A stretch of 11,292 bases of DNA from a virus (Duplodnaviria; Heunggongvirae; Uroviricota; Caudoviricetes). The notes beneath the pieces are model-generated. The model searched no databases. It saw only the letters and a program-made list of their open reading frames with translations, and was not told the origin of the DNA. Shown here piece after piece: positions 522 to 1,098 of this stretch (positions are counted from its first letter, which is position 1; each line of letters starts with the position of its first letter). Position numbers and translations under genes: made by a program. The stretch lies in the IMG/VR virus record IMGVR_UViG_2548876860_000007; one strand, 5' to 3'.

Positions 522-560
522 AATACCCATAGGTATTTAAAAAGTAAATACCCATGGGTA
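522..560. promoter_or_regulatory. OL-like pair of operator palindromes (TACC-N4-GGTA core)
   Basis: Two inverted repeats, AATACCcataGGTATT (522-537) and ATACCcatgGGTA (547-560), about 25 bp centre to centre. They share the TACC-N4-GGTA core with three sites in the repressor/cro intergenic region. Confidence 0.4.
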
Positions 561-603
561 ACTTTTTTGCGGTGTCTTAACTGGTGACTAGTTGTTTGGT
601 GAG

Positions 604-1023
604 CTATGATGCGTTTTGTGCTTTCTTTTTACGGATTTCTTCGTAGATCATATTGTAATACTGTTTTTTCTCTTCAAGAGTTTTTAATAATTTATCCGCT
701 TCACTTTCTGGCAGTTCGTCTAAGAGATCTAAAAAAATACGTTGTCGTGGCGTTAGAACCCTTGTTTCATAACTGGAGGCTGTGTTCGTTGATGATGAAA
801 CGATACCATCCATCCATCCCCGGGGTAACCCAAAGGACTCTTCGATAATCTCCACCATATCATCAGCGATCCGTTTTTTTCCCTTTTTCCCCTCTGGGTA
901 CAACATTCTTGATACATAAGAAGGCTCGCGCCCGATCTTTCTGGCCACGTTAACCGCTTTACCATCGCATTTCTCATCACGAATTTTGATGAGTTGCTGT
1001 CGTCTAAATTCATATTTATCCAT
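604..1023 (-). CDS. Prophage repressor, XRE/DicA-like HTH protein (139 aa), no S24 peptidase domain
   Basis: 139-aa ORF with an N-terminal HTH-like segment (...VARKIGREPSYVSRMLYPEG...). The C-terminal part (LTPRQRIFLDLLDELPESEADKLL...) resembles DicA-type short repressors as recalled. Divergent from a cro-like gene across an operator-bearing 100-bp intergenic region. No SD in front of the ATG. Confidence 0.8.
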   Translation of the reverse strand: MDKYEFRRQQLIKIRDEKCDGKAVNVARKIGREPSYVSRMLYPEGKKGKKRIADDMVEIIEESFGLPRGWMDGIVSSSTNTASSYETRVLTPRQRIFLDLLDELPESEADKLLKTLEEKKQYYNMIYEEIRKKKAQNAS

Positions 1024-1043
1024 AGGTAAATAATAGATGCGAT

Positions 1044-1098
1044 TACCGCAAGGTAAACAACCTGTGGGTATTGACTTTTATTTACCTGTGGGTATTCT
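1044..1098. promoter_or_regulatory. OR-like operator cluster with candidate PR (TTGACT 1071-1076, TATTCT 1093-1098) and candidate leaderless PRM
   Basis: Three TACC-N4-GGTA sites: TTACCgcaaGGTAA (1044-1057), AACCtgtgGGTATT (1059-1072) and TACCtgtgGGTATT (1084-1096). The last two are a 13-bp direct repeat 24 bp apart. A -35/-10 pair for the rightward cro-like gene overlaps them. On the minus strand a TATTAT -10 (1035..1030) sits 7 nt from the repressor ATG. Confidence 0.5.

Follow-up and report, generated by a model that had tools for sequence, protein, structure and literature searches.

The TACC-N4-GGTA palindromes that lie on either side of a gene for a 139-amino-acid (139-aa) repressor are very probably the operators, here predicted, of an ordinary lambda-style prophage switch. 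They occur in a stretch of 11,292 nucleotides (the window, meaning the whole of the DNA analysed) with the content of the early region of a lambdoid Escherichia coli prophage, and we have high confidence that this stretch holds the immunity region of such a prophage (of the Qin/Rac type) with a lambda-like switch. With equally strong conviction we suggest that dimers of the short repressor, seated on these palindromes, run the switch. The prophage is only partial in the window: leftward of the repressor gene (604-1023, minus strand) lies a DUF1391 (ydfA-type) gene (338->186, minus strand), and rightward follow a cro-like gene, ydaT, genes for an HTH/DnaD-like replication initiator and an IstB/DnaC-like ATPase, DUF1627 and Ead/Ea22-like genes, hok/sok and, at the rightward end of the listed genes, DUF968 (identified through the RefSeq homologue in the related prophage L001), RusA and the Q antiterminator. 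An Rfam scan returned sok and two tRNAs only, with no match in the repressor/operator region. An ORF of 51 aa at 375-530 (PHROG 19140) starts inside the operator OL1, upstream of the predicted start of the leftward promoter, and we treated it as non-coding leader; the related RefSeq prophage L001 has no annotated counterpart of it.

Perfect TACC-N4-GGTA cores were found four times (524-535, 549-560, 1044-1055 and 1083-1094) against an expectation of 0.10, a count that was reached in none of 200 shuffles; with up to one mismatch allowed, there are eight sites against 2.25 expected. The relaxed search adds a fifth site at 1059-1070 (AACCTGTGGGTA) and a sixth at 1017-1028 (TATCCATAGGTA), and its matches at 1472 and 2879 are isolated and chance-like. 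The first five sites fall into two groups, one of three in the gap where repressor and cro diverge and one of two past the repressor stop, the nearer member of which ends 44 bp beyond it. Centre-to-centre spacings are 24 bp for OR1-OR2, 15 bp for OR2-OR3 and 25 bp for OL1-OL2. The sixth site, which covers the repressor start codon and might have served as an extra weak operator, is probably fortuitous: its right half is the conserved coding sequence ATGGATAAA, and relatives do not conserve its left half. The preliminary description of this DNA had proposed five operator-like palindromes, two of them about 45 bp past the repressor stop; four perfect sites and one with a single mismatch are indeed present, at positions within 1-2 bases of those first given.

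Each site is placed with respect to promoter hexamers in the lambda manner, overlapping the predicted rightward (PR), repressor-maintenance (PRM) and leftward (PL) promoters. The repressor and cro ORFs (604-1023, minus strand, and 1124-1405, plus strand) diverge across 100 bp, in which a promoter scan predicted PRM (minus strand, 1030-1057: TTTACC at 1057->1052, a 16-nt spacer and TATTAT at 1035->1030) and PR (plus strand, 1071-1098: TTGACT, a 16-nt spacer and TATTCT). Of the putative operators in this gap, the OR3 equivalent (TACCGCAAGGTA, 1044-1055) overlaps the PRM -35 hexamer and spacer; the imperfect OR2 equivalent (1059-1070) adjoins the PR -35 hexamer, its centre 41.5 bp upstream of the predicted PRM start; and the OR1 equivalent (TACCTGTGGGTA, 1083-1094) lies in the PR spacer and overlaps the PR -10 hexamer. 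Past the repressor stop, we read from the sequence a PL on the minus strand (520-548: TTTACT at 548->543, a 17-nt spacer and TATTCT at 525->520), which matches the consensus at 8 of 12 positions and, being under the scan threshold, was not called by the scan. Its predicted start is near 513, leftward toward the DUF1391/ydfA-like gene; OL1 (TACCCATAGGTA, 524-535) lies in its spacer and overlaps its -10 hexamer, and OL2 (TACCCATGGGTA, 549-560) adjoins its -35 hexamer. On the minus strand this region reads TACCCATGGGTA-TTTACT-N17-(TACCTATGGG)TATTCT, a duplicate, one base longer, of the arrangement at PR (GGTA-TTgACT...GGTATTCT).

The same layout recurs far beyond E. coli. A scan of one genome per species yielded 43 loci with the same N-terminal repressor head, spanning Enterobacterales, Aeromonas, Neisseria, Burkholderiales, Nitrosomonadales, Xanthomonadales (including Xanthomonas) and others, and the motif is present in about 38 of these, across two classes of Proteobacteria, at offsets from the repressor ATG (-73/-72, -48/-47 and -33/-32) close to those in the window (-71, -47 and -32). 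The lambda-like OR/OL arrangement suggested at the outset is thus borne out both by the promoter overlap and by this recurrence of motif and offsets. In most of the 43 loci the downstream operator pair is 24-26 bp apart and is followed directly by TTGAC, and in about 30 relatives the OL pair has embedded -35 and -10 hexamers. The consensus across loci is tTACC-Y-R-Y-R-GGTAa. Where the middle site, OR2, is present, it is mostly imperfect (GGTT or GGGA), which fits a weak site dependent on a cooperative partner. In phages mEp043 and CharmingMan three sites lie between cI and cro and two at PL, spaced as in the window, and the flanking DNA of these phages has diverged. A search of the literature for the motif, the head family or the mEp043 operators found no description of them, and the present analysis defines an operator (tTACC-YRYR-GGTAa) and a promoter layout for a widespread repressor head not covered by any Pfam family.

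The repressor itself appears to be assembled from two modules. Residues 1-72 of the 139 encoded by the ORF constitute a helix-turn-helix (HTH) head homologous to mEp043 cI (in tblastn against phage genomes, residues 1-86 match the cI head of mEp043 and CharmingMan at 65% identity), and mEp043 cI has an identical predicted recognition helix, EPSYVSRMLY. A disordered linker (residues 77-87) leads to a two-helix tail (residues 92-138) like those of DicA and of the Tritos CI. The tail shares 33% identity with residues 84-129 of DicA (46 residues, E 2e-7), including the C-terminal motif L-x-P-x5-L-x-L-x3-LPESE..., and is much nearer to the Tritos CI tail than to that of DicA; the NCBIfam DicA model (NF007257) gives 24.5 bits against a cut-off of 101, aligning only residues 86-136. 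As similarity to mEp043 stops, and similarity to Tritos begins, inside the disordered linker, we suggest that the repressor is an apparent recombinant of the two types, and the finding of YdaT in the window and in Tritos only, among all loci, agrees with such a mosaic origin. The protein had been called DicA-like, a name that suits the C-terminal ~50 residues (33% identity) and the downstream ydfA/dicB-type operon but not the head, which is of the mEp043 cI type (65%) rather than HTH_3, no HTH_3 match being found in the 139-aa sequence.

Structure prediction is consistent with this division. An AlphaFold model (mean pLDDT 86) places helices at residues 3-18, 23-30, 34-40, 54-63, 92-103 and 106-138, with disorder at 77-87, and the best solved match in Foldseek is Rep of the Salmonella phage Rep-Ant complex (5d50, E 9e-4, TM ~0.45), followed by XRE-type HTH regulators. 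As modelled, the head is a diverged lambda-repressor-like HTH domain, and no match to it was found among Pfam, NCBIfam or PDB sequences (weak matches to ADAR Z-alpha domains, E about 0.08, were dismissed as chance), making it a repressor head without a sequence-detectable relative among solved structures. In a protein search the head proved widespread, usually in an S24-fused form of 220-242 aa (with PF00717), and the short form of ~135-140 aa occurs in E. coli, Salmonella, Serratia and Yersinia. A Pfam search of the 139-aa repressor found neither Peptidase_S24 nor any other domain, upholding the view that it lacks the S24 domain that most homologues with the same head possess. The pair of forms offers a clean natural tail swap, S24 peptidase versus DicA-type helices, on a single DNA-binding specificity, and predicts cross-immunity between SOS-inducible phages and SOS-blind cryptic prophages.

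The repressor mRNA is likely to be leaderless, judging from the DNA around its start. On the repressor strand the TATTAT hexamer (1035->1030) is followed by 6 nt (TTACCT) and then by the ATG at 1023, which is the first start codon of the ORF, no in-frame start preceding it; none of the words AGGA, GGAG, GAGG, AAGG or GGGG occurs at -18 to -6 of this ATG, and the residues that it opens (M1-D2-K3-Y4-E5) are nearly invariant among repressor relatives. We scored the same geometry in the 39 relatives with two or more OR sites. In 30 of them, 6 or 7 nt separate the best -10-like hexamer from the ATG, and words resembling a Shine-Dalgarno (SD) sequence occur in only nine, mostly upstream of the -10 hexamer. 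A TATTAT -10 hexamer close before an ATG without SD, as the preliminary description had it, is therefore seen with a 6-nt gap in the window and persists in most relatives. In PRM of lambda, the -10 hexamer likewise lies 6 nt before the cI ATG. The placement of the hexamer, the lack of an SD and the retention of this geometry together make a leaderless transcript likely, as for lambda cI and PaaR2, adding one more probable natural case to the few leaderless mRNAs known in E. coli. For paaR2 of CP-933P, leaderless transcription was established by 5' RACE and N-terminal sequencing (PMC8630535).

On the other side of the divergent promoters, the cro-like gene (1113-1405, plus strand, including its SD) encodes a YdaS-family protein of 93 aa that starts at ATG 1124 behind a Shine-Dalgarno sequence, AAGGAG, at 1113-1118. 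It is followed by ydaT (1389-1814, plus strand; PF06254), the product of which is a functional analogue of CII and a strong match in sequence to the crystallised YdaT of CP-933P (8bt1, E 7e-93). A perfect YdaT operator, TTGATT-N6-AATCAA, for which the chance expectation is 0, occupies 1382-1399 at the end of cro and the start of ydaT, and the inverted repeat at the equivalent place in CP-933P is footprinted by YdaT (PMC9986795).

Such a neighbourhood raises the question of whether the palindromes are bound by the Cro-like protein only, the 139-aa protein reading some other sequence or no DNA at all. A Cro homologue does accompany the head in 33 of the 43 loci, that of the window being 73% identical to mEp043 Cro, and YdaS and PaaR2 footprint the same region in CP-933P, so that binding by Cro is to be expected in any case; on the basis of this association, and by analogy with lambda and CP-933P, Cro very likely reads the same sites as the repressor. 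Yet five Klebsiella loci (L008, L010 and L012-L014) that carry the head and lack the Cro homologue retain OR1 (5/5), mostly a perfect OR3 (3/5) and the OL pair (4/5), OR2 alone being lost in all of them, and no TACC-N4-GGTA operator sites were found in Tritos, which has a similar tail and the same ydaT with an HTH_3 head. Persistence of the operators without Cro and their absence from Tritos argue that the motif follows the repressor head and not Cro alone, and the 139-aa protein models as an HTH head with the recognition helix of mEp043 cI; exclusive binding by Cro is accordingly a reading to which we give very little credence. We would be equally surprised if the sites and genes were relics of a dead prophage with no working switch. 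Signs of decay do exist, in that an IS21-family element sits in the portal gene of a closely related prophage, which also carries several pseudogenes, and the whole window was found (at least 80% in one place, by megablast) in none of the complete E. coli genomes. However, the ORFs for the repressor, Cro and YdaT are intact, none of the operators or promoter hexamers has been lost, and the cryptic prophages Qin, Rac and CP-933P all retain functional switches. Moreover, 822 of 5426 complete E. coli genomes contain at least 80% of the segment 350-1420, with top matches ~98% identical, which places the repressor-encoding region in about 15% of them. The closest match examined is a prophage adjoining ompW with a left arm that runs ydfC ... 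dicB ... exo-xis-int; there the 139-aa gene is labelled 'hypothetical protein' (WP_000362153.1 in the related RefSeq prophage examined), and a predicted function can now be assigned to its product.

A further alternative, in which the chief task of the downstream palindromes is to end the repressor transcript, as an intrinsic terminator or a roadblock, and not to serve as operators of a leftward promoter, has somewhat more in its favour, and we still consider it unlikely. OL2 and OL1 can pair as a 16-bp hairpin on the repressor strand, followed by the T-rich TTCTTCTTTT; a scan flagged this hairpin as terminator-like (RNA fold -24.1 kcal/mol, z = -4.5), no further terminator was predicted from the stop at 604 as far as PL, and the PL operon has the same orientation as the repressor gene. 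But the operator pair with its -35 and -10 hexamers is kept in ~30 relatives, in many of them at a distance of hundreds of bases from the end of the repressor gene; most of them have a weaker T-rich tail or none (hairpin plus tail being strongest in the E. coli form), and mEp043 has a separate GC-rich terminator upstream of its operator pair. The embedded hexamers, the mostly missing or weaker tail and the separate terminator of mEp043 indicate that the conserved role of the pair is that of OL at PL. Termination would be at most an added, window-specific role, which could possibly keep PRM transcripts out of the PL operon.

Operators read by the repressor, at OL as at OR, can be envisioned to work as follows. 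Dimers of the 139-aa protein would recognise tTACC-YRYR-GGTAa through the N-terminal HTH head; with OR1 and the weaker OR2 (24 bp apart) occupied, PR would be blocked, and with OL1 and OL2 (25 bp apart) occupied, PL would be blocked, leaving cro, ydaT, the replication genes and the leftward ydfA/dicB-type operon silent. From its position 41.5 bp upstream of the PRM start, OR2 could also activate PRM, the mRNA of which probably begins at the A of the ATG, and at OR3, over the PRM -35 hexamer, Cro or excess repressor would shut PRM, an arrangement that may be bistable. YdaT at 1382-1399 probably drives establishment in the manner of CII. The 15 bp between the centres of OR2 and OR3 would put these sites on roughly opposite faces of the helix, unlike the 23 bp of lambda, and this spacing, together with two OL sites rather than three, suggests that details of cooperativity or looping may differ from those of lambda.

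How the switch would be induced is a separate matter. With no S24 domain and a DicA-type helical tail in its place, cleavage of the repressor aided by RecA is excluded, and derepression would have to come about through an antirepressor encoded elsewhere, through instability of the repressor or through spontaneous Cro-driven flipping as in Qin. Precedents for short repressors include DicA, relieved by Rem or flipped spontaneously through DicC, and the Gifsy repressors, relieved by LexA-controlled antirepressors (PMC10448788). The early suggestion of another induction route holds in so far as cleavage is excluded, but the antirepressor that it put forward is an analogy only, since no member of the Ant, KilAC or Bro families was found among the window ORFs. 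BLASTP and tblastn searches for a Rem homologue in the window and the related prophage loci L001 and L049 gave only noise, and a 92-aa ORF at 6892-7170, flanked by hokD and the DUF968 gene as rem is in Qin, does not resemble Rem. No perfect LexA box (CTGT-N8-ACAG) occurs in the window, where two one-mismatch matches are fewer than expected by chance, or in 65 kb of related prophage (L001 and L049). A Rha-family gene in the PL operon of a related prophage was dismissed as a trigger, as it would itself be repressed.

Going further, we put forward, as a possibility that we hold less likely than not, a broader proposal: the head, operator and Cro may form an old, nearly frozen unit of immunity specificity carried on two interchangeable tails, the SOS-blind repressor of the window might dominate co-resident or incoming phages of the mEp043 type, and the OL pair, as a terminator or roadblock, may also end the leaderless repressor transcript just 44 nt past its stop codon. 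The great age of the specificity is suggested by the recurrence of the same TACC-N4-GGTA core and spacing from Enterobacterales to Neisseria and Xanthomonas. If the proposal is true, an uncleavable repressor would confer superinfection immunity and block SOS induction of homoimmune neighbours. The prevailing view of how lambdoid switches work is left unchanged by the present findings.

Comparison with known systems places the switch among familiar designs. As in lambda, the repressor and cro genes diverge, three operators lie over PR and PRM and a second set lies at PL; paired sites in lambda are likewise ~24-25 bp apart, and an OR2-like site lies ~42 bp upstream of the PRM start. Unlike lambda, the window has a repressor without sequence similarity to lambda cI, operators of 12-14 bp (TACC-N4-GGTA) rather than 17 bp, only two OL sites, an OR2-OR3 distance of 15 bp and an OL only about 0.56 kb from OR; the repressor, lacking S24, would not undergo RecA-stimulated cleavage, and YdaT replaces CII. 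Closer in several respects is the PaaR2/YdaS/YdaT system of CP-933P, a bistable switch with operators at OR and OL and a leaderless repressor mRNA (PMC8630535). The two share a short repressor without S24, a matching YdaT (8bt1, E 7e-93) and, where cro meets ydaT, an identical TTGATT-N6-AATCAA site. They differ in that PaaR2 is a different protein (it starts MQKKE, and a PDB search gave no match for the window repressor), the CP-933P operators are 18-bp repeats (consensus GTTTAGTAA) with four in OR, and PaaR2 is followed by a toxin-antitoxin pair, of which the window has none.

The DicA/DicC switch of Qin, which is bistable (PMC10448788), similarly has a short repressor lacking a cleavage site or S24 and homologous over its C-terminal ~46 residues, and downstream of its repressor gene, in the same orientation, lie a repressed promoter and a ydfA (DUF1391) ... 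dicB-type operon; the window differs in that its head is not HTH_3, its Cro belongs to the YdaS family and is not DicC, and no Rem was found. With mEp043 and CharmingMan the window shares the head, the operator motif, the number and spacing of sites at OR and OL, the -10-to-ATG geometry and a homologous Cro, whereas their repressors are of 225-228 aa with Peptidase_S24 and presumably SOS-cleavable, and mEp043 has lambda-type cII and N genes, with an additional gene and a distinct terminator lying between cI and OL. The Gifsy repressors GfoR and GfhR, short repressors controlled by antirepressors (Lemire et al. 2011, PMC3121763, as cited in PMC10448788), resemble the window repressor, as does Rep of 5d50, in having no autocleavage domain; they are set apart from it in that no LexA-controlled antirepressor gene was found in the window (LexA boxes having been sought in related prophage as well), and the structural match to Rep is weak and partly that of a generic HTH fold. 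In summary, what is particular to this switch is the operator sequence, the head family and the head-tail mosaic, and the logic of the switch is one already known from lambda, CP-933P and Qin.

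Downstream of the repressor gene, the two predicted operators at the leftward promoter PL (OL2 and OL1) pair as a 16-bp RNA hairpin that is followed by TTCTTCTTTT (524–560, minus strand) and lies 44 nt past the repressor stop codon. This terminator-like structure may stop the repressor transcript ahead of the co-directional PL operon; among the loci compared, the Escherichia coli form in the window has both the strongest OL hairpin and the shortest distance to the repressor stop. The predicted PL leader, a stretch of approximately 165 nt (350–513) reaching from the PL start to the DUF1391 gene, retains about 89% identity across about ten coliphage genomes, in most of which it is unannotated. 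Rfam gave no match in this leader, which may contain a regulatory RNA or a site for antitermination. A 51-aa open reading frame (ORF) on the minus strand (375–530) is probably not a gene: it matches PHROG 19140, but its start lies within OL1, upstream of the transcript start predicted for PL, and the related RefSeq prophage (L001) has no annotated counterpart.

A variant switch architecture occurs in five Klebsiella loci (L008, L010 and L012–L014): the repressor head seen in the window is joined by an S24 domain, no Cro homologue is present and TTTGCTATATTTT stands in place of OR2, whereas all five retain OR1 and most retain OR3 and the OL pair. The most divergent homologues, those of Advenella (L043 and L047; 119 aa, 35–38% identity), lack TACC-N4-GGTA and have palindromes of the type ATACCGC-N-GCGGTAT about 40–65 nt upstream of the repressor ATG, with TACC and GGTA (or GGTG) half-sites approximately 12 bp apart, suggesting an unchanged half-site with a different dimer geometry. 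In four Burkholderiales and related loci (L033, L036, L039 and L042), OR1 overlaps the −10 element of the rightward promoter PR (GGTAAATTGTAGTCATG in L033, for example), and the cro start region lies about 85–100 nt upstream of the repressor ATG. Because the cro ATG follows this −10 element by only about 6 nt, both switch genes (that is, repressor and cro) may be leaderless there, unlike the window, in which cro has a leader of approximately 19 nt with AAGGAG.

Further downstream, a hok/sok type I toxin–antitoxin system (6400–6724) comprises sok (6400–6574; 114.9 bits, Rfam) and a HokD-like ORF that extends to 6724. The adjoining 92-aa ORF (6892–7170, PHROG 1212) occupies the place that rem, encoding the antirepressor of DicA, has in Qin, yet is unrelated to Rem despite this position. 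The Q antiterminator ORF (in the region 8586–10506) is short, at 119 aa; in the related prophage, the antitermination gene measures 822 bp. After it come three reverse-oriented genes (8959–9345, 9346–9591 and 9595–10506) with matches to PHROGs of unknown function; the two that were scanned had no Pfam match, and the product of the middle gene looks membrane-like by eye. They may constitute an inserted cassette, either a moron or a defence one, upstream of the phage-borne genes for tRNA-Met (CAT) and tRNA-Arg (TCT) (within 10739–10971). Such tRNA genes downstream of Q are common in Stx-type and lambdoid prophages.

At the cro/ydaT junction, a perfect predicted operator for YdaT, the functional analogue of CII, TTGATTCATGAAAATCAA (1382–1399), extends across the end of cro and the ydaT start codon, so that the ATG falls within its N6 spacer. 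The YdaT operator of CP-933P has the same placement, likewise spanning the end of cro and the start of ydaT.
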